IMG/VR virus record: IMGVR_UViG_3300014596_000012
Location: 2,713 to 66,712 of that record
Strand: one strand, 5' to 3'
DNA length: 64,000 nucleotides
DNA from: a virus
Lineage: Duplodnaviria > Caudoviricetes
Of this stretch, positions 12,395 through 28,384 are shown in pieces (the stretch's first letter is position 1; each line of letters starts with the position of its first letter). Under the pieces are notes generated by a model. That model made no database searches, was not told the origin of the DNA, and saw only the letters and a program-made list of their open reading frames with translations. Both the position numbers and the translations under genes were made by a program.

Positions 12395-13073
12395 GAAGAA
12401 ATTCAACCCAAACCGGATATCGCCGGCAGCGATCAGACAGTACCAGCACGACGCATCATTGCGTCGTGACATGGCCCAAAAGTTCCCAATGGAAATGGAA
12501 TATGTTGGCCATCATGTGCATGAGTACATTGAACGCAAGAAATTAGATGAAAAAGAATTATTTGATCTTTTTTCAGACAGCAAGACGTTACCGTTCCATA
12601 TAGCGTTAGGGGCATACGATTGGCAGAACATGGGTATCGTTCTGGCGCTCGATCATATCAAGCCGTGTGAGTGGTTTATTCATACAAATATTCATTTGAT
12701 GAATGTGGAAGATGAAGATACCAACATGATTACCGTGCCGTATGAGCAGAGAGTTCCAGAGATGCACCACTGTGAACTTTGGCAAGGTAAAGCGGATGCC
12801 AGGGTGGATCTGGGCATGGGTTTAAAGAAAGTGGGGTGGAAGGGCTTAAAGCAAGAACTGTCTGATGCCATTGATGCCCGGAAGGACATACCAGAAGGCC
12901 ATGCTATTGAGTATATGCAGATATATATCAGTGCTGATGTCGAGTTTAAGAGCCTTGCGGCCTACAAGGAATATCTGGCTGTGAACTCATGGCTAGAACA
13001 GGGCATTGAAGTTGCTGAACGAAACCTGCGGCAATTATGGGTTTATGAACAAATTGCGCAGCAACAAGCATAA
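12372..13073 (+). CDS. Hypothetical phage protein
   Basis: Start MSKLKVRKKKFNPNR at 12372. Confidence 0.75.
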   Translation: MSKLKVRKKKFNPNRISPAAIRQYQHDASLRRDMAQKFPMEMEYVGHHVHEYIERKKLDEKELFDLFSDSKTLPFHIALGAYDWQNMGIVLALDHIKPCEWFIHTNIHLMNVEDEDTNMITVPYEQRVPEMHHCELWQGKADARVDLGMGLKKVGWKGLKQELSDAIDARKDIPEGHAIEYMQIYISADVEFKSLAAYKEYLAVNSWLEQGIEVAERNLRQLWVYEQIAQQQA

Positions 13074-17371: not shown

Positions 17372-17463
17372 ATAAGACGGCCAACGACCCACATCAAAAT
17401 CATTTCATGCACGTACGTGCAATAAAACTGCACCATGATTGTGCAAAAGTGGTGATTATATGA
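17368..17463 (+). CDS. 31-aa bridging ORF between terS and terL
   Basis: GTGA and ATGA overlaps on both sides. Confidence 0.4.
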   Translation: MNKTANDPHQNHFMHVRAIKLHHDCAKVVII

Positions 17464-19121
17464 TGTATAACACTCACTTAGCCGAACTACCCACAAATAA
17501 AGAAGAACTGGAAAGATGCCTGGCTGACCCACAGTGGCGTATTTTTTCAGGCTGTCTATATAAGATCAAAATTAAGGGTGATGACTTTAAGGATGACTTG
17601 GGAAATGTCATTGAAGCCGATACTTTTGAACTGCCATTTAAACCGAACGCTGCACAGATCAAATTTTTAAACCGGTTGTGGCACCGCAATATTATCTTAA
17701 AAGCACGTCAGCTTGGTTTTACTACGCTGATCTGTATCTTGTGGCTGGACCATGCACTGTTCAATGCTAACCAGAACTGCGCCATTATCGCTCAGGACTT
17801 GCCGACGGTTTTCAGTATCTTCAAGGACAAGATCAAGTTTGCCTATGACAACCTTCCAGATGAAATCAGAGCACGCTTTCCTTTAAAAGCCTACAACAAG
17901 TCAGAAATTGAGTTTGGCCACAATGGATCAAGCATCCGTGTAGCGACATCATTCCGTTCCGGTACCATCCACCGCATGCTGATTTCCGAGTTCGGTAAGA
18001 TCTGTGCGAGTGATCCGGCCAAAGATGATGAGGTTATTACCGGTTCGATCCCAACTGTACCGACCAATGGTGTGCTGGTGATTGAATCCACGGCGGAAGG
18101 ACGTAACGGTTCATTCTATGCAATGGTTCAGGCAGCACAGACCAACTACTTACTCCGTAAAATTCTCACATCCAAGGATTACCGCTTCCATTTCTATGCA
18201 TGGTGGCAAGAGCCCAAGTACCGGATTGATTCTACTCAAGTCAATATTTCAGCCAGAGATCATGAAGAACTGGATGAAGTTGAGCTGATCGTACGCCAGA
18301 AAATGGGGATCAAGATGCGTCTCGATCCTGATCAGCGTGCCTGGTATGTGCTGACACGGGACAACGACCTTCGCGGTGATAGTGCCAAGATGTGGCAGGA
18401 ATATCCATCATTCCCTGATGAAGCATTCCAGGTGGCCAAAGATGGTAACTACTATGCCAAGGATATGCTGGCACTGCGTAAGCGTGGTGGTATTGGTCAG
18501 ATCGAAGTATTGGATGTACCGACTTATACCTATTGGGATATCGGGAATCATGACGGCTGTGCAATCTGGTACCAACAGATCATGAACGGCCAAGACCGTT
18601 TTATTCGCTACTACGAGAAGCATGGCCAAGATCTAAGACACTATGTAGCAGAGATCAAATCACACGATTACATCTACCACACCCACTTCCTGCCACACGA
18701 TGCCGCACACCAGCGCCTAGGTGACTTTAACAAGTCTGTTATGGAGCAGCTGGAAGAACTATTACCAGGACATAACTTTGTGATTGTGCCGCGTATTACT
18801 CAACTGATCCACGGTATTCAGTCCACACGTAAGCATCTAAAGAATGCTTGGTTCGATAAAGATGGCTGCAAATTGGGTATTGAGCGTATCGAAGGCTATC
18901 AGAAGAAATTCTCCAAAGCAGATAAATGCTTTATTGATCAGCCTAACAAGGCCAATGGTTGCTCGGAAGGTGCCGATGCATTACGTCAATGGGCACAAGC
19001 CAAAGATGCAGGGATGATCGAAGACATAGCAGACATGACGAGCCGTGTAGGGTTCGCAGAAGATGAACCAAAACGCCAAGATAACTACAACGATGAGCCA
19101 GTCGACTGGCGACTAATGTAG
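17460..19121 (+). CDS. terL: Terminase large subunit
   Basis: ILKARQLGFTT Walker A, ISEFG Walker B-like, ESTAEG, YWDIG nuclease, LPHDA. Confidence 0.92.
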   Translation: MMYNTHLAELPTNKEELERCLADPQWRIFSGCLYKIKIKGDDFKDDLGNVIEADTFELPFKPNAAQIKFLNRLWHRNIILKARQLGFTTLICILWLDHALFNANQNCAIIAQDLPTVFSIFKDKIKFAYDNLPDEIRARFPLKAYNKSEIEFGHNGSSIRVATSFRSGTIHRMLISEFGKICASDPAKDDEVITGSIPTVPTNGVLVIESTAEGRNGSFYAMVQAAQTNYLLRKILTSKDYRFHFYAWWQEPKYRIDSTQVNISARDHEELDEVELIVRQKMGIKMRLDPDQRAWYVLTRDNDLRGDSAKMWQEYPSFPDEAFQVAKDGNYYAKDMLALRKRGGIGQIEVLDVPTYTYWDIGNHDGCAIWYQQIMNGQDRFIRYYEKHGQDLRHYVAEIKSHDYIYHTHFLPHDAAHQRLGDFNKSVMEQLEELLPGHNFVIVPRITQLIHGIQSTRKHLKNAWFDKDGCKLGIERIEGYQKKFSKADKCFIDQPNKANGCSEGADALRQWAQAKDAGMIEDIADMTSRVGFAEDEPKRQDNYNDEPVDWRLM

Positions 19122-19134
19122 AACAGGTAGCAGC

Positions 19135-21432
19135 ATGCAGAATGATGAAAACTCAGTGACTGATACGCCAGAAGTTATAGATGAAATGGCATTGAACCTT
19201 CAAGAGCTCAATGAGATCCATGACGAGATAGAACAGCAACCATACTGGCGTACGACTGCAGATAAAGAAATGGACTATGCCGACGGCAACCAGCTGGACA
19301 GTGAATTACTGACCCGGATGAAGCTGATCGGTATTCCTCCTGCAATTGAGAATATGATTGGTCCTGCATTGCGTGCAATTGAAGGTCATGAACTGGAAAC
19401 ACGGACAGACTGGCGTGTGACACCCAATGGTGAACCTGGTGGACAAGATGTTGCAGATGCACTGAACTATAAGTTGAATCAGGCAGAGCGGCTATCCAAG
19501 GCAGATAAAGCGTGTAGTGATGCATTCCGACCTATGATTGGCTGTGGTATCGGTTGGGTTGAGGTCAAACGTGAAGCAGATCCGCTCAAGTATCCATATC
19601 GCTGTGTTGCAGTGAACCGCAATGAAATTCATTGGGATATGAAAGCCCAGGAAGATGATCTAAGTGATGCACGTTGGTTGCGTCGTAATCGCTGGGTACA
19701 TCCGCAGCGTCTTAAGATTGCATTCCCTCAGCATAAAGAGCTGATTGAAACGATTGGCCGACATGGTGCTTTGTGGTGGCAGCATGACAGTATGATTGAT
19801 GGTGGTAACTCTACCGGTCTGCGTAATGCCTGGGGTGATGCTCAAGCCTGGTCTAAGACTGAGCGTTTCTGGTTCGATCAGACTTCTAAAGAGATTAATG
19901 TCTCAGAAGTATGGTATCGCCGTTGGGTAGAACTGACCATGTTGCGCTTTGATGATGGCCGGATCGTTGAGTTTGACGAAAACAATCCAGCACATATTTA
20001 TGCTGCAGCAAATGGTTATGCCATTCCTGAACGTGCACCAGTGGCTAAAATGCGTCGTAGCTATTGGATGGGACCACATTGCTTATACGATGGGCCTACA
20101 CCATATCCCCATGAAAGTTTCCCATATGTCCCGTTTATAGGGTTCCGTGAGGACAATACCGGCATTCCATATGGCTTTGTACGTGACATGAAGTATAGCC
20201 AAGACCTGATCAATTCAACCCAGGCTAAATTGCGCTGGGGTTTAAGTTCGGTACGTGTGACCACTACACGTGGTGCATCACAGATGACACGTGGCCAGAT
20301 TATGCAGCAGATTGCACGTCCAGATGCCTACATTGAACTGAATCAGCAGCATATGGCCAAGACTGGAGCAAAGTTTGAAGTTGAACGTGACTTTGAGTTG
20401 AATCAGCACCAATTTAAGTTGCTTGAAGATAGCCGGATCTCGATTGAACGTACCAGTAGTATTACTTCAGGCTTTCAGGGCCGTCAGGGTACAGCAACCA
20501 GTGGACGACAAGAGCAGCTGCAGATTGATCAGTCGAATCAGGCATTGCGTAAAATCATGGATCACTTTAAGGAATCTCGAACCCTGGTCGGTGAGTTATT
20601 ACTTTCTATGATTGTAGAAGACTTAGGCAGCAAGGAAGAAGTAGTGGTGATCGAAGGTGATGCGATTACTGCAGAGCGTCGTGTGCATATCAATAAGCCT
20701 GAGACAGATCCAATGGGTTATACCTATCTGTCTAATGATGTACAGCGTACCCGGATCAAAGTCATTCTTGAGGATGTACCAAGTACCAGTGGTTTCCGTG
20801 CCCAGCAGCTTGCAGCATTGTCCGAAGTTACCAAATCCTTGCCACCGAATATCCAGCAGACGATTCTGCCGTACCTTATTGCGCTTACAGACACACCATT
20901 CAAGCGTGACATTATCCAAAGCATTCGTGATGCGGTGGATGCACCAACACCTGAGGAAGTGGAACAACGTATTAAGGATGCAGTGGCTCAGGCACTGAAA
21001 GAATCTGGCAATGAGATCAAGCTACAAGAATTGCGTTTGAAAGAGCGTAAAACAGAAAGTGATATCAAGTTGGTGGATGCTAAAGCTGTACAGACAGGTG
21101 TTCAGTCACAATACAGCGCAGTCCAAGGAGCAGTACAAGTGGCTCAGGTACCACAAGCAGCACCGATTGCCGATATCATTATGCAGGGTGCTGGGTATCA
21201 GCGTCCGAATCCAATGGGTGATGATCCGAACTTGCCTATACCTGGTGAAGTAGCAGCACGTGATATCCGCTCTCCATACCTGGAAGGGGAAGGTGCGCAG
21301 ATCGGCAGTGAAGGTATTGCTGATATGCAAGTACAGCAGAATACGTCGCCAATGAACCCACCGGTACCGCAGCAGCCATCTACTGGGTTGCAAGGAATTG
21401 AGACGGCGCGGACCAGTGATAATTTAAGTTAA
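19135..21432 (+). CDS. Portal protein (P22/N4-like, long C-terminal extension)
   Basis: 765 aa after terL; YADGNQ, FPYVPF.G, GFVRDMKYSQD, PATSGRQ-like motifs. Confidence 0.88.
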   Translation: MQNDENSVTDTPEVIDEMALNLQELNEIHDEIEQQPYWRTTADKEMDYADGNQLDSELLTRMKLIGIPPAIENMIGPALRAIEGHELETRTDWRVTPNGEPGGQDVADALNYKLNQAERLSKADKACSDAFRPMIGCGIGWVEVKREADPLKYPYRCVAVNRNEIHWDMKAQEDDLSDARWLRRNRWVHPQRLKIAFPQHKELIETIGRHGALWWQHDSMIDGGNSTGLRNAWGDAQAWSKTERFWFDQTSKEINVSEVWYRRWVELTMLRFDDGRIVEFDENNPAHIYAAANGYAIPERAPVAKMRRSYWMGPHCLYDGPTPYPHESFPYVPFIGFREDNTGIPYGFVRDMKYSQDLINSTQAKLRWGLSSVRVTTTRGASQMTRGQIMQQIARPDAYIELNQQHMAKTGAKFEVERDFELNQHQFKLLEDSRISIERTSSITSGFQGRQGTATSGRQEQLQIDQSNQALRKIMDHFKESRTLVGELLLSMIVEDLGSKEEVVVIEGDAITAERRVHINKPETDPMGYTYLSNDVQRTRIKVILEDVPSTSGFRAQQLAALSEVTKSLPPNIQQTILPYLIALTDTPFKRDIIQSIRDAVDAPTPEEVEQRIKDAVAQALKESGNEIKLQELRLKERKTESDIKLVDAKAVQTGVQSQYSAVQGAVQVAQVPQAAPIADIIMQGAGYQRPNPMGDDPNLPIPGEVAARDIRSPYLEGEGAQIGSEGIADMQVQQNTSPMNPPVPQQPSTGLQGIETARTSDNLS

Positions 21433-23379: not shown

Positions 23380-23748
23380 ATGAGCAATATTAATGTTGGC
23401 ATGATTGGCACACCGTTCAAACTTTCTACATTGACCATGGCTATCGCTGTGGCCATTGCGACCCAACCAAAACAGGAAGATGAGCCGCACTGGTTGGATG
23501 CAGAGGAAGGGCCACTGGCCCATCGCTTCGACAACTTCCTGAATAGCTGGACTGACGATACCGAGTTCACTATTGAGCATGAGTCATCTGATGCACTGGA
23601 TTTGTACTGTATGACCGCAGATGGTATTCCGTTCTCATTCCGTCGTATCGATGACCGTTATAGTCTGCTATTCGATAATGAATCAGAAACAATCCAGCAA
23701 GAAACCTTTGAGTTTTTTGTTGAGCAATTAAAATTTTTACCACTTTGA
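23380..23748 (+). CDS. Hypothetical acidic protein
   Basis: 122 aa with N-terminal hydrophobic stretch. Confidence 0.6.
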   Translation: MSNINVGMIGTPFKLSTLTMAIAVAIATQPKQEDEPHWLDAEEGPLAHRFDNFLNSWTDDTEFTIEHESSDALDLYCMTADGIPFSFRRIDDRYSLLFDNESETIQQETFEFFVEQLKFLPL

Positions 23749-24315
23749 ACTGTTTGTATTTTTTTTATACACGTCGTCGTAAACCGGCGACTTACTATAA
23801 ATATATCGGGTGGTGCTGAGCATCATTCGGTAAACAAGCCAAGGTTTGTTTAATCTCCATTGACGGTTCGGAAAGACGAGCACATTGATTGAATCCACAG
23901 CTGATGTGGTGGAGTGATGCAAGTAGCAACTGGGGTTAGCCGCAGGGAAAGCAGAACCACAAGAAATCGTTTGTACCGTGCGCTTGTCAATCAATAAATG
24001 AAGGTTTTCACTGAACCAATTAAGTGATGACAAGCTAGGTAAAAAGCTGCTGACTGTTAGGAATAGACTAGTACCTATATTAAAGAGTGCGGACATGAAA
24101 AACAGTGGTCTACACAATAAAAGGCATTCCAAGCCTGTGAGTAATAGATCAGGATGCTCTTTTTAATATAGGTTTTGAAGAATTGAATGTCTTGGTTTAT
24201 GACGTGAACGGTTGACCCAACAATTGGGGAACGCGCATCCATTAAGCGCTTAATGGTATGAGTCGGAAGGAATACCGCAGAATGATAAACATGACAGCCT
24301 GGAAAGACAGGCAAA

Positions 24316-24363
24316 CCCATCTGATGAGCTTGTGAGACTCAAGCGAAACCGAAAGGTCATGGG
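24316..24363 (+). ncRNA. Type I hammerhead ribozyme
   Basis: CCCAT-CTGATGA-GCTTG(TGAGACT)CAAGC-GAAA-CC(GAAA)GG-TC-ATGGG; complete core with GUC cleavage triplet. Confidence 0.9.
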
Positions 24364-24602
24364 ACAGCGCAACACAATATGAATCGAAAGACATTGTGAG
24401 GACTGCTAGTGAATTTGCGCAAGTAGCTAGACGGCATAGCACGATATTGGTCGATTGTCCTTCAACGGGAATGAACCATAAAAGCCGCTACGGGCACAAG
24501 GGAAGTTGATGACAACTTGGAAAGACAAGTAGAGCGTTGCTATCTCTTAAAACTACTGCCGGTTCCCCTCGATGTTATTCGTAGCATCTTGTGGGAACGA
24601 AT

Positions 24603-24671
24603 CCTTGGCTGCAGGCGGTGCGCGTACCAATCCCTCAGGTACGGTAGGTTCGACTCCTACGCTCAGGGCCA
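24603..24671 (+). ncRNA. Non-canonical tRNA-like element with encoded CCA
   Basis: Acceptor CCTTGGC/GCTCAGG (6 of 7 pairs), T-arm GTAGG-TTCGACT-CCTAC, discriminator G, CCA; 6-bp middle hairpin with 9-nt loop, no variable loop, weak D-arm. Confidence 0.7.
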
Positions 24672-24701
24672 GATAATGCTGTGGGTTCTTAACCCTTTTT
24701 T

Positions 24702-24733
24702 GCCCACCTTTCCCCAAGGGTGGGCTTTTTTTT
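24702..24733 (+). terminator. Intrinsic terminator ending the RNA locus
   Basis: GCCCACC/GGTGGGC followed by 8 T. Confidence 0.85.
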
Positions 24734-24735
24734 AG

Positions 24736-25011
24736 GTGACTATGATGATAATGCTGCATTTAATTTCACGTGCTACAGCAAAAGAATATGGTCTTAAAAA
24801 ATACTTTACCGGAAAACCATGTCGTTATCGGCAGTATGCTGAGAGAAAAACAGGAAATAAGAACTGTACGTGTTTTTTATGTGAAGCCATTCATAGAACG
24901 CAAATGAAGGAATGGCGACAACATAATCCTGGTCATGTTACGAAATGGCGTAAAGAAAAAAGGGTTTCACCACATAACCCAACTTTCATTGAGAAGGAGA
25001 ATCAAAAATGA
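24736..25011 (+). CDS. Hypothetical protein with YFTGKPC Zn module
   Basis: RATAKEYGLKKYFTGKPC...CTCFLC. Confidence 0.65.
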   Translation: MTMMIMLHLISRATAKEYGLKKYFTGKPCRYRQYAERKTGNKNCTCFLCEAIHRTQMKEWRQHNPGHVTKWRKEKRVSPHNPTFIEKENQK

Positions 25012-25382
25012 GTTTGATTGATCGGTTGGGCGGGTATGGGAATGCTAAAGACATTATTACTCAAAATATAAAAGACTTCGAAGAAGCAGTTGATGAGGTT
25101 GGAATATATCACCCTTCTTCTGGGTGGATTGTTCACGAAGATTTAGTCAAAGCACTTCTCGAATATCGCCGTGAACATAATATGTATGAGGAAGGTGACA
25201 AGGTTGTCATGATCAGCAAAAGACGTGCACCAAAGTTATGGACTTGGATACATACAACCAATTGGCGTCCTAATCACTCTTTATTGGATTGTGGAGAAAA
25301 TTTGTTATACCCATTTAGTAATGATGAGTTTCGTCACGCTACTGATGCAGAGATCAAAGCCATGACCAGAGGTGCAGAGTGA
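25008..25382 (+). CDS. Hypothetical phage protein
   Basis: 124 aa, ATGA-coupled. Confidence 0.7.
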   Translation: MSLIDRLGGYGNAKDIITQNIKDFEEAVDEVGIYHPSSGWIVHEDLVKALLEYRREHNMYEEGDKVVMISKRRAPKLWTWIHTTNWRPNHSLLDCGENLLYPFSNDEFRHATDAEIKAMTRGAE

Positions 25383-25873
25383 ATAAAACTAGACTATGCA
25401 CTAAGTGCAAAACCAATCGTCCGCAGTCAACCTTCTATTCTTTGCATACTGTTTGCAAATTCTGTGTGTCTAAGAGAAACTGCGAAACTATTGAAGATGG
25501 CGCTAAGCGATATTTAGAACGTCGTCAATTGCCTATATTCATTGAAGCAGTGAAGCAAGAAAAAGAAAAGTCTGGTATGTCATGGGCGGCTTATTCATTA
25601 TCACTTGGATTTTCAAATAAAGATGTTGTATACGAATGGTTTCGTAGAGATAAGAAGCCGTCACAGCAATCTCAATTACACGTTAGTCAGAAACTCAATA
25701 TCCCCTATGAAGACTTTTTATTTATACAAAGTGAAAAGGGGGAATATCCATGTGGTCTGCGGATCTGTAATACCTGCCAGTCTGAGTTTCTGGTTTATAA
25801 GAAGCAGAACTACCTTACACATAATTGCGCCACATGCATCGATAGCAAAATCGATTATAAAAAAGCCACTTAA
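25379..25873 (+). CDS. Zn-finger plus HTH putative regulator
   Basis: CTKC...CKFC, GMSWAAYSLSLGFSNKDVVYEW, CNTC...CATC. Confidence 0.65.
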   Translation: MNKTRLCTKCKTNRPQSTFYSLHTVCKFCVSKRNCETIEDGAKRYLERRQLPIFIEAVKQEKEKSGMSWAAYSLSLGFSNKDVVYEWFRRDKKPSQQSQLHVSQKLNIPYEDFLFIQSEKGEYPCGLRICNTCQSEFLVYKKQNYLTHNCATCIDSKIDYKKAT

Positions 25874-27071: not shown

Positions 27072-27091
27072 ATTTGTTAGTGGAGAATACC

Positions 27092-28384
27092 ATGACTGAT
27101 AAAACCCATGCCGCATACGGCGATAAAACCAATATGATGCAACAGTCCGTTGGACTCTTTGCAAAAAGCTTACGCCGTAAAAGCACGCTGAATAACCTGG
27201 TTGGCCCAATGCCAAAAGGTGAAGGTAGTGCAGAAGCGACCATTAAAAAACAAACCTCTAAACACATGCCGATTGTACGTGTTCAAGATTTAGGTAAAGG
27301 CTTGGGTGATGAAGTTACCTACAACCTGATCCAGCCAGTAAACGCTTATCCGATCATGGGTAGCGAATATGCTGAAGGTCGCGGTGTCGGCATGTCGATC
27401 GTTGAAGATCGTCTGCGTGTAGACCAGGCACGTTTCCCTGTAGATCTGGGTAACGTCATGACGCAGATCCGTTCACCAGTCGATTTCCGTCGTATGGGCC
27501 GTCCAATTGCACAGGACTTGATGGATCGCTATAGCGATATGTCTCTTTTAGTTCATCTGTGTGGTGCACGTGGTTTCGTTAAAAACGTGGAATGGCCAAT
27601 CCCAACTGAGGAAGATCCGAAGTTTGCCAAAATTATGGTGAACAAGGTCCTGGCACCAACCAAAAACCGTCACTTCATGGTTGATGGCCAAGGCGTTAAA
27701 TCATTTACCACCAATGCTGGTGAAGCATCTCTGGCAACTACAGACCTGTTCACACTGGATACTGTGGATTCAATGAAGCAGGTTCTGGATGACATGGTAT
27801 TGCCGCCACCTTGTATTAAGGTCGAAGGCGATGATGGATCAGAAGATTCACCACTGCGCGTATGGCTGGTATCCCCAGCACAATACAACTGGTTTTCAAA
27901 GCAGCCTACATTCCGTCAGTTCCAGGCTGATGCGGTAGCACGTGCATCGAATGCCAAGTTGCATCCGTTGTTCCGTGGTGATGTGGGTATCTGGAATGGT
28001 TTCCTGATCCGCAAAATGTCTCACGCAATTCGCTTCTTTGCGGGTAATGCAATCAAGTATGCAACGAGCCATACCTCTGAGACAGAAGCGTCAGCGCTTG
28101 TACCTGCAAGCTTTGGTAAAACGCATGCAGTGGATCGTTCAATCATCTTGGGTGGCCAGGCATTGGCAGAAGCATTTGCTGCTCATAAAACCTCAGGTGT
28201 GCCGTACTTCTGGTCTGAAAAGGGTGATCTGGATCATGGCGATAAGGCCGAGCTTTTGATCGGAACAATTCGTGGCGTGAAGAAAATCCGCTTTGATGTC
28301 GATGTGGATGGCGATGGTAGCAACATGCAGTACACCGATCATGGTGTGATTGCAGTCGATACCGTAGTGAAAATCCAAGGCTAA
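27092..28384 (+). CDS. Major capsid protein (N4 gp56/DUF4043-like)
   Basis: PIVRVQDL.K..GDEV, DQARFPV, GGQALAEA; GGAG RBS before ATG 27092. Confidence 0.85.
   Translation: MTDKTHAAYGDKTNMMQQSVGLFAKSLRRKSTLNNLVGPMPKGEGSAEATIKKQTSKHMPIVRVQDLGKGLGDEVTYNLIQPVNAYPIMGSEYAEGRGVGMSIVEDRLRVDQARFPVDLGNVMTQIRSPVDFRRMGRPIAQDLMDRYSDMSLLVHLCGARGFVKNVEWPIPTEEDPKFAKIMVNKVLAPTKNRHFMVDGQGVKSFTTNAGEASLATTDLFTLDTVDSMKQVLDDMVLPPPCIKVEGDDGSEDSPLRVWLVSPAQYNWFSKQPTFRQFQADAVARASNAKLHPLFRGDVGIWNGFLIRKMSHAIRFFAGNAIKYATSHTSETEASALVPASFGKTHAVDRSIILGGQALAEAFAAHKTSGVPYFWSEKGDLDHGDKAELLIGTIRGVKKIRFDVDVDGDGSNMQYTDHGVIAVDTVVKIQG

Follow-up and report, generated by a model that had tools for sequence, protein, structure and literature searches.

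A gene-free stretch of 934 nt on the + strand of an Acinetobacter phage, at positions 23800-24733 of the 64-kb piece of phage DNA analyzed here (the window), is in our judgment likely to be an RNA island: one + strand transcription unit that ends in two terminators and carries a series of RNA modules, each of which folds and is conserved on its own. These modules are real units, carried by related phages and prophages in varied orders and subsets. The locus is best described as a real, uncatalogued multi-part structured RNA, kin to the tRNA-linked RNA islands of phages and not a giant RNA. An earlier note on this DNA had proposed a single ornate RNA of ~0.9 kb that combines a ribozyme, repeated hairpins and a tRNA mimic. 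Every element that it quoted can be read from the sequence at its position; the single fixed fold did not survive comparison, as the relatives carry the pieces in other orders and subsets, with breaks at a recurring hairpin.

The comparison rests on 12 related Acinetobacter phage and prophage loci, whose module orders are listed in Table 1. BLAST against phage records showed conservation of window positions 24286-24527 only (78-80%), with matches in phage Alexa, just after the integrase gene, and after the helicase gene in the lytic siphoviruses JeffCo, Bhz20 and vB_AbaSI_2 and their kin. Eight further loci came from pattern scans and from searching 247 Acinetobacter genomes. Of the pattern scans of viral contigs, the first returned 27 chance matches and no homologue, and the second returned one phage (L071). 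The metagenome scan found one contig, a near copy of L046, and the genome-contig scan found two real loci and one chance match (L034), while a further phage search was dominated by tRNA matches. Because the same pieces appear in differing orders and subsets, the conserved entity is not one fixed 0.9-kb fold. The differences in presence and absence among the window, L035, L043, L044 and L048 start and stop at a short hairpin, which we call the border hairpin. L035 is without exactly C2-D-hp1 and has an hpX-type hairpin directly 5′ of the hammerhead; L048 equals L043 with hammerhead, E, a further piece and a hairpin added; and L044 runs from its first hairpin straight to F.

A border hairpin is made up of a UGAC flank, a single purine or U, a stem of 4-5 bp and a GGAA(N)AGAC loop. 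We found 20 true instances across the loci, all on the RNA strand, and the three exact copies of GGAAAGAC in the window all lie inside the island. Among 15 distinct copies the flank and loop are invariant and the stems covary, with 88% of stem positions paired against 74% in shuffles and a covariation score of 0.55 against 0.23 (reached by 0 of 500 shuffles). The UGAC flank also terminates the closing helix of D and the second pseudoknot (PK2) of E, so the border hairpin probably stacks on the closing helix of each module. It is a candidate processing, protein, docking-loop or recombination site. A kissing contact between the hairpin loop (AAAGAC) and GUCUUU at the start of D was dropped, as it fits some loci and not L046. 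We also considered the border hairpins as mimics of host CRISPR repeats or as a type III antitoxin repeat and found no likeness in sequence or spacing.

Folding of the whole stretch supports structure on the RNA level, as the earlier note had held. The + strand reaches -292 kcal/mol (z -4.08), better than all 20 shuffled controls, versus a z of -1.52 for the - strand, and the small open reading frames (ORFs) that overlap the stretch match no PHROG family. Most of the thermodynamic signal comes from module A (z -3.75) and the C2 hairpin (z -4.01); D and F score -1.9 and -1.56. The minimum free energy (MFE) of B, C1, E and the tRNA-like element is no better than that of shuffles, with z near zero for B and the tRNA-like element, and the support for B, E and the tRNA-like element is comparative, not thermodynamic. 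In the homologues, covariation was found for the hammerhead, E, B, D and the tRNA-like element. The helix that was thought to close a first junction fails the comparison. That helix, 23820-28 (GCATCATTC) with 23912-20 (GAGTGATGC), has nine pairs, one of them G-U. MFE and centroid structures prefer a competing local 13-bp hairpin, and we rejected the helix since it pairs A with the inside of B, yet A and B occur apart (A without B in L044 and L047, B without A in L036). In contrast, the proposed 9-bp pairing 23884-92/23987-95 is the closing helix of module B, kept through compensatory change in L036, and the second junction, 24188-24296, is the conserved module D with a covarying inner hairpin; an 18-nt palindrome lies at 24239-56. 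Complementarity between 23982 (GCTTGTCA) and 24028 (TGACAAGC) is present, but the pairing involves C1, which is absent from every relative. The stem 24073-84/24162-73, of at least 12 bp, is foldable as part of C2 and has no homologue.

The leading alternative, which we regard as unlikely, is one large ornate RNA resembling GOLLD or ROOL, a single folded and possibly multimeric particle with the modules as its domains and the hammerhead serving only in maturation or regulation. The folding of the whole stretch and its position as one unit, bounded by the end of a gene and by two terminators, would suit such a particle, and the four identical hairpin loops could be repeated docking sites. GOLLD likewise combines a variable 5′ part with a conserved 3′ part, and can hold tRNAs in a linker (10.1101/2024.12.08.627333). 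Like GOLLD and ROOL (10.1101/2024.12.08.627333; PMC5737381), which are often found at tRNA islands, our locus is encoded by a phage, spans hundreds of nucleotides and contains pseudoknots. However, its modules occur alone or permuted: L043 has only tRNA and D, L044 is without B to E, B follows the tRNA-like element in L036, and the lytic phages carry hammerhead and E alone. The helix joining A and B is not conserved, and the hammerhead, predicted to be self-cleaving, would split the RNA in two. No GOLLD or ROOL match was found at E values up to 10 in 23600-24900, and none in 10 related loci. The locus is a member of neither family, in line with the earlier note, which had not recognized it as a described RNA. 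More generally, no Rfam 15 family reached its gathering score anywhere in the window, the same search of the 10 related loci gave true tRNAs only, and no twister, pistol, hatchet or HDV-like match appeared in 23600-24900 at E up to 10.

The one meaningful match at a loose Rfam threshold is Hammerhead_HH9 (RF02275) at 24316-24363, with 21.8 bits and an E value of 0.016 against a gathering score of 52. The others were a weaker RAGATH-1 hammerhead (16.8 bits against 56.3), a 16-bit tRNA-Sec match on the tRNA-like element, and terminator-driven matches to small RNAs (sRNAs). The hammerhead models expect longer stem I features. Judged from its sequence, the element, which the earlier note had called a hammerhead, is a complete type I hammerhead with an intact core and is predicted to cleave itself. 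It contains C3-U4-G5-A6-N7-G8-A9, G12-A13-A14 and an N-U-H triplet, and N7 (U or C), the sole core position free to vary, is the only one that differs among the 10 homologues. All three stems show compensatory change, in few independent events: stem I is CCCAU/AUGGG or CCGAU/AUCGG, stem II GCUUG/CAAGC or GCUAG/CUAGC, and stem III ACC/GGU or ACAC/GUGU. Perreault et al. (2011, PMC3088659) report hundreds of bacterial examples, in prophages and close to integrases. Ours adds a member to the type I hammerheads of phages, with the same core (CUGANGA, GAAA, GUC), three stems, an open stem I and a prophage or intergenic setting. It differs from them in its score, in a stem I of only 5 bp with no loop contact identified, and in flanking a structured non-coding RNA instead of mRNAs, to which it is always fused: in every locus it lies 5′ of module E, and it was never seen without E. 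A 100-nt contig from a chicken-gut small-RNA library (run X20) consists of hp1, the hammerhead and TTT joined back to hp1 (window 24297-24363), which amounts to a 70-nt cycle plus the assembler's 30-nt overlap. This single contig, at a depth of ~5, may come from a relative with tandem hairpin-hammerhead units or from a small circular RNA.

Module E has four helices and two pseudoknots, derived from an alignment of 8-9 distinct sequences with 45 invariant columns. In this alignment (A3), 88.6% of cells in the proposed helices are paired versus 74.0% in shuffles, and 24 of 36 pairs change on both sides versus 13.1 expected; 0 of 500 shuffles reached either value. Sliding the partners by 1-3 columns lowers pairing to 28-41%. 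All six pairs of the first pseudoknot (PK1) covary. The sequences that form PK2 are unrelated among the window/Alexa type, the JeffCo/L036 type, L046 and L048; where L046 differs from L048, the changes on its two strands match. This structure is invisible to MFE folding (z -0.55), which is what one would expect of an RNA with pseudoknots. When 151 Acinetobacter genomes and a further 150 from the same order were searched with a covariance model built on E, only the known copies came up, and by this search the family is confined to Acinetobacter mobile elements within the genomes covered. Together, the 45 invariant positions and the compact knotted fold point to a specific ligand, protein or catalytic role rather than to simple base-pairing regulation. 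Pairing of the freed 5′ AUGGGAC of E with a GUCC inside E was dropped because it is not conserved in JeffCo.

The tRNA-like element near the 3′ end is also maintained. RNAalifold on five sequences gave a cloverleaf of 21 pairs, six with compensatory change: a 7-bp acceptor in which one base is bulged, a D-like stem of 4 bp capped by a GGCGG loop, a 5-6-bp middle arm with a UCCCUC loop, and a canonical T-arm followed directly, with no discriminator, by CCA. The T-loop is UUCGACU, UUCGAAU or UUCAACU, and the CCA is invariant. The middle loop varies from 9 to ~30 nt while UCCCUC is always present, from which we conclude that the element is a mimic and not a decoding tRNA. ARAGORN found no tRNA and no tmRNA in the window, the Rfam tRNA match stayed below threshold, and a tmRNA, with a tRNA-like domain and a tag reading frame, is likewise not indicated. 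The earlier note's tRNA mimic, with its T-arm and CCA, thus stands, with the amendment that a small D-arm is present and covaries. In L036 the element lies mid-array, which suggests an internal mark rather than a 3′ cap. The U8 terminator that had been noted is present at 24702-33. This second terminator (GCCCACC..GGGTGGGC plus T8) is 89-94% identical to a terminator in ~160 of 247 Acinetobacter genomes, sometimes in several copies. The host copies (L051, L055, L061 and L068, around 1500) stand at the ends of short AT-rich units that have no genes and resemble a multicopy family of host sRNAs, and a search of the plasmid collection gave a match to the terminator only.

Of the remaining modules, B was aligned for the window, L035 and L036 and shows three compensatory pairs, of which the closing helix and the first hairpin contain one each, with a third helix also kept (L036). 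Its long single-stranded runs are invariant at 84% overall identity, and in L036 it stands downstream of the tRNA-like element. Module D (alignment A4) has invariant flanks and an inner hairpin that covaries as CCCAA/UUGGG, CCUA/UAGG or UCGAA/UUCGA. It lies directly 3′ of tRNA-Arg(UCU) in L043, L046, L048 and L071, and in the window the place of that tRNA in front of D is occupied by C2. Module A is 89-98% conserved in L035, L044 and L047. Module F occurs in L035 and L044 only, with one G-U to G-C change in its inner stem; its UUCG hairpin 24571-88 is nested in GTTCCC/GGGAAC (24562-67/24593-98). C1 has no homologue in the 247 Acinetobacter genomes, the phage collection or the plasmid collection and is absent from L035, and C2 has neither a homologue in the searched genomes nor a second copy. 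The module map of the larger array, the border-hairpin statistics, the tRNA-mimic cloverleaf and the link between D and tRNA-Arg are new.

It is also conceivable, and in our estimate quite improbable, that only the hammerhead with E, and perhaps D, is functional, everything else being debris left by recombination and by the decay of a phage tRNA cluster (a pseudo-tRNA, scraps of linker and an inverted repeat that was inserted). The lack of homologues for C1 and C2, the true tRNA-Arg and tRNA-Cys genes at corresponding places in relatives, the rejection of the tRNA-like element by ARAGORN and Rfam, and the near-zero z of B and of that element all agree with decay. Debris, however, would not be expected to keep a cloverleaf through six compensatory changes with UCCCUC preserved in a loop of varying size, nor the invariant runs and compensatory pairs of B, nor border-hairpin loops whose stems covary. 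Least probable, and in our view very much so, is a DNA-level role in which the hairpins are recombination sites (by micro-homology, or site-specific and integron-like) and the island a cassette-exchange hot spot with RNA structure secondary: insertions and deletions do begin and end exactly at the hairpins, several of which share ~20 nt of near-identical sequence, enough for phage recombinases, but the stems covary with G-U pairs valid only on the + strand, folding is strand-asymmetric, no recombinase gene adjoins the island, and such a role accounts for the shuffling but not for why E, B, D and the tRNA-like element are conserved, so that it complements the RNA reading. The likeness to integron cassette arrays, units of variable content that end in hairpin-forming sites and are gained or lost there, is an analogy only; here the cargo is RNA modules, the hairpins span only ~16-20 nt, there is no adjoining integrase, and the covariation of the stems is in keeping with a role of the RNA.

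Table 1. Positions of features in the window, and order of modules in the window and related loci (HH, hammerhead; hp, border hairpin; X, module X).
Feature	Position	Strand	Remarks
Terminase gene	17439-19121		upstream of the RNA stretch
Portal gene	19135-21432		upstream of the RNA stretch; five small ORFs between portal and stretch
Module A	23800-23863	+	two local hairpins, ~23804-23832 and 23833-23850; MFE and centroid agree
Border hairpin hp0	23861-23881	+	UGAC flank; 5-bp stem 23866-70/23877-81; loop GAAAGA
Module B	23884-23995	+	closed by 23884-92/23987-95; RNAalifold
C1	23996-24052	+	linker; z -0.01
Border hairpin hpX	24051-24073	+	UGAC flank, stem; loop variant GGAAUAGAC at 24060
C2	24074-24177	+	long AT-rich hairpin, 15-bp basal stem
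Module D	24178-24296	+	closed by ~24188-24200/24283-24296
Border hairpin hp1	24292-24312	+	UGAC flank; GCCUG/CAGGC stem; loop GAAAGA
Type I hammerhead	24316-24363	+	sub-threshold HH9 match and 10 homologues
Hammerhead stem I	24316-20/24359-63	+	5 bp, open
Hammerhead core CUGAUGA	24321-27	+
Hammerhead stem II	24328-32/24340-44	+
Hammerhead core GAAA	24345-48	+
Hammerhead stem III	24348-50/24355-57	+
GUC cleavage triplet	24356-58	+	predicted cut after C24358
Module E	24359-24516	+	~155 nt
E PK1	24367-72/24415-20	+	six bases from 8 nt past cleavage site with P2 loop
E P1	24373-78/24393-98	+	variable hairpin
E P2	24406-10/24426-30	+
E P3	24435-40/24487-92	+
E P4	24448-51/24475-78	+
E PK2	24456-66/24505-14	+	P4 loop with 3′ tail
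Border hairpin hp2	24515-24530	+
Module F	24531-24602	+	UUCG hairpin 24562-24598
tRNA-like cloverleaf	24603-24671	+
Intrinsic terminator 1	24683-95	+	followed by U6
Intrinsic terminator 2	24702-25	+	followed by U8
Major capsid gene	27074-28384		Pfam Phage_capsid_3; downstream, further small ORFs between
Order in window			A, hp0, B, C1, hpX, C2, D, hp1, HH+E, hp2, F, tRNA-like, two terminators
Order in L035			A, hp0, B, hpX, HH+E, hp2, F, tRNA-like, X (~230 nt), terminators
Order in L044			A, one hairpin, F, tRNA-like, X, tRNA-Cys, terminators
Order in L047			A, hairpin, different short linker, tRNA-like, X, tRNA-Cys
Order in L036			different 5′ part, D, hp1, HH+E, another module, tRNA-like, B, X, terminator
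Order in L043			tRNA-Arg(UCU), D, hairpin, terminator
Order in L048			tRNA-Arg(UCU), short D, hp1, HH+E, further piece, hairpin, terminator
Order in L046, L071, L072			tRNA-Arg(UCU), D, hp1, HH+E, terminator; second tRNA in L071
Order in JeffCo, vB_AbaSI_2			promoter-like site, HH+E, tRNA-Arg(CCU)

The related loci hold further conserved pieces. Module X, a conserved non-coding sequence absent from the window, lies 3′ of the tRNA-like element (1900-2140 in L035, with equivalents in L044, L047 and L036), and the L036 copy differs from the others by apparently paired changes. Between E and the tRNA-like element of L036, a 60-nt piece (1926-1985) has 92-95% identity with sequence between the genes of many Acinetobacter myoviruses (AB1, Ab31, YNAF and others), another shared RNA-like module. 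More conserved gene-free sequence lies upstream of tRNA-Arg(UCU), at 1124-1420 in L046 and 12830-13060 (oriented) in L071, and in both of these loci runs of TTATGCAC-like repeats flank the RNA locus on both sides.

The window belongs to a 66.7-kb IMG/VR virus record rated complete by CheckV. The phage is most likely temperate, to judge from close relatives that sit in Acinetobacter chromosomes: L035 (= G002), L044 (= G060) and L047 (= G006). Pfam and PHROGs gave no function for the small ORFs that flank the stretch, and neither RtcB nor a CCA-adding enzyme was found in the phage record. Directly 3′ of the terminators, the block 24736-25873 contains three small ORFs (24736-25011, 25008-25382 and 25379-25873), the first of which matches phrog_1081, a family with no annotated function. 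L035 and L044 are without this block, and there the terminator abuts the homologue of window 25863 onwards; the block is a moron-like variable segment. About 0.7 of sampled words of the stretch are present in small sequencing runs from at least 8 studies (sludge, landfill, sediment, air, soil and food fermentation); this type of phage or its host seems to be widespread, unless it is a frequent contaminant. One RNA-library contig (run X16) covers 23404-24355, from the upstream ORF into the island, and stops 3 nt before the predicted cut. As it comes from one study with contigs only, in which DNA carry-over is possible, it shows presence in an RNA library without proving transcription, and we do not use its stop or the downstream lack of cover as evidence. 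Two other runs, X15 and X17, gave no contig on the stretch.

We propose that the island would be read as a single transcript, perhaps by read-through from the upstream late genes. The transcript would cut itself after C24358, leaving a ~560-nt 5′ product with a 2′,3′-cyclic phosphate and freeing E with a 5′-OH. We speculate that the hammerhead is a built-in insulator that would let the same E fold stand behind a promoter, a tRNA or other modules, and since hammerhead and E are found behind a promoter-like site, a tRNA trailer and other modules, its simplest role would be to give E a context-free 5′-OH end. Host RNase P would probably cut at the tRNA-like element, and at the true tRNA in relatives, a second punctuation mark that would free E-hp2-F (~245 nt) and a 69-nt tRNA-like RNA. 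The C2 hairpin may be an RNase III site.

Parts of this scheme have parallels. The tRNA gene cluster of phage T4 encodes stable non-tRNA RNAs, species 1 and 2, whose ends are made by tRNA-processing enzymes; to our knowledge no function was assigned to them for decades. Punctuation by tRNAs also operates in mitochondria and in MALAT1-mascRNA processing. The likeness to these systems is that small structured RNAs are co-transcribed with tRNAs or tRNA-like elements; the island additionally has a cis ribozyme and a recurring border hairpin. In synthetic insulators of the RiboJ type, a 5′ self-cleaving ribozyme strips variable upstream sequence and makes the downstream RNA context-independent. The many contexts of the hammerhead-E cassette suggest a natural case with a non-coding RNA as cargo.

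Several points weigh against the RNA island as we describe it. Cleavage, RNase P processing and stable products are predicted only, and no convincing promoter was found upstream of module A. None of the Rfam hammerhead models reached its gathering score, and no tertiary contact between stem I and loop II, loop-loop contact or pseudoknot was identified for the ribozyme. The tRNA-like element has no 8-9 and 26 linkers and no discriminator base, which makes its recognition by RNase P an assumption. The homologues of E are few and related, all from Acinetobacter elements, so the shuffle statistics are inflated. A and F are present in close relatives only, for which reason covariation is unavailable for them; C1 is without support of any kind, and the support for C2 is thermodynamic only.

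Beyond the RNA island itself, we hypothesize, tentatively and with more doubt than confidence, that Acinetobacter phages carry hairpin-punctuated cassettes of exchangeable structured RNAs, each ending in a UGAC...GGAA(N)AGAC hairpin that would be read by a dedicated processing, packaging or recombination factor, and that the hammerhead-led E is a new class of functional RNA (a ribozyme, or an RNA that specifically binds a host factor, for instance a defence aimed at tRNAs) whose 5′-OH has to be made by a ribozyme. Among the hundreds of bacterial and phage hammerheads, this one is welded to a strongly conserved knotted RNA that moves between unrelated phage genomes, an arrangement that offers a directly testable idea, the ribozyme as context insulator and 5′-end maker. 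If the hypothesis is true, it would give such hammerheads a concrete job. At least four uncatalogued motifs (B, D, E and the UCCCUC-bearing tRNA-like element) are added to the RNAs found beside phage tRNA genes, and some "giant" non-coding regions of phages may be arrays of small exchangeable RNAs that share a punctuation hairpin.

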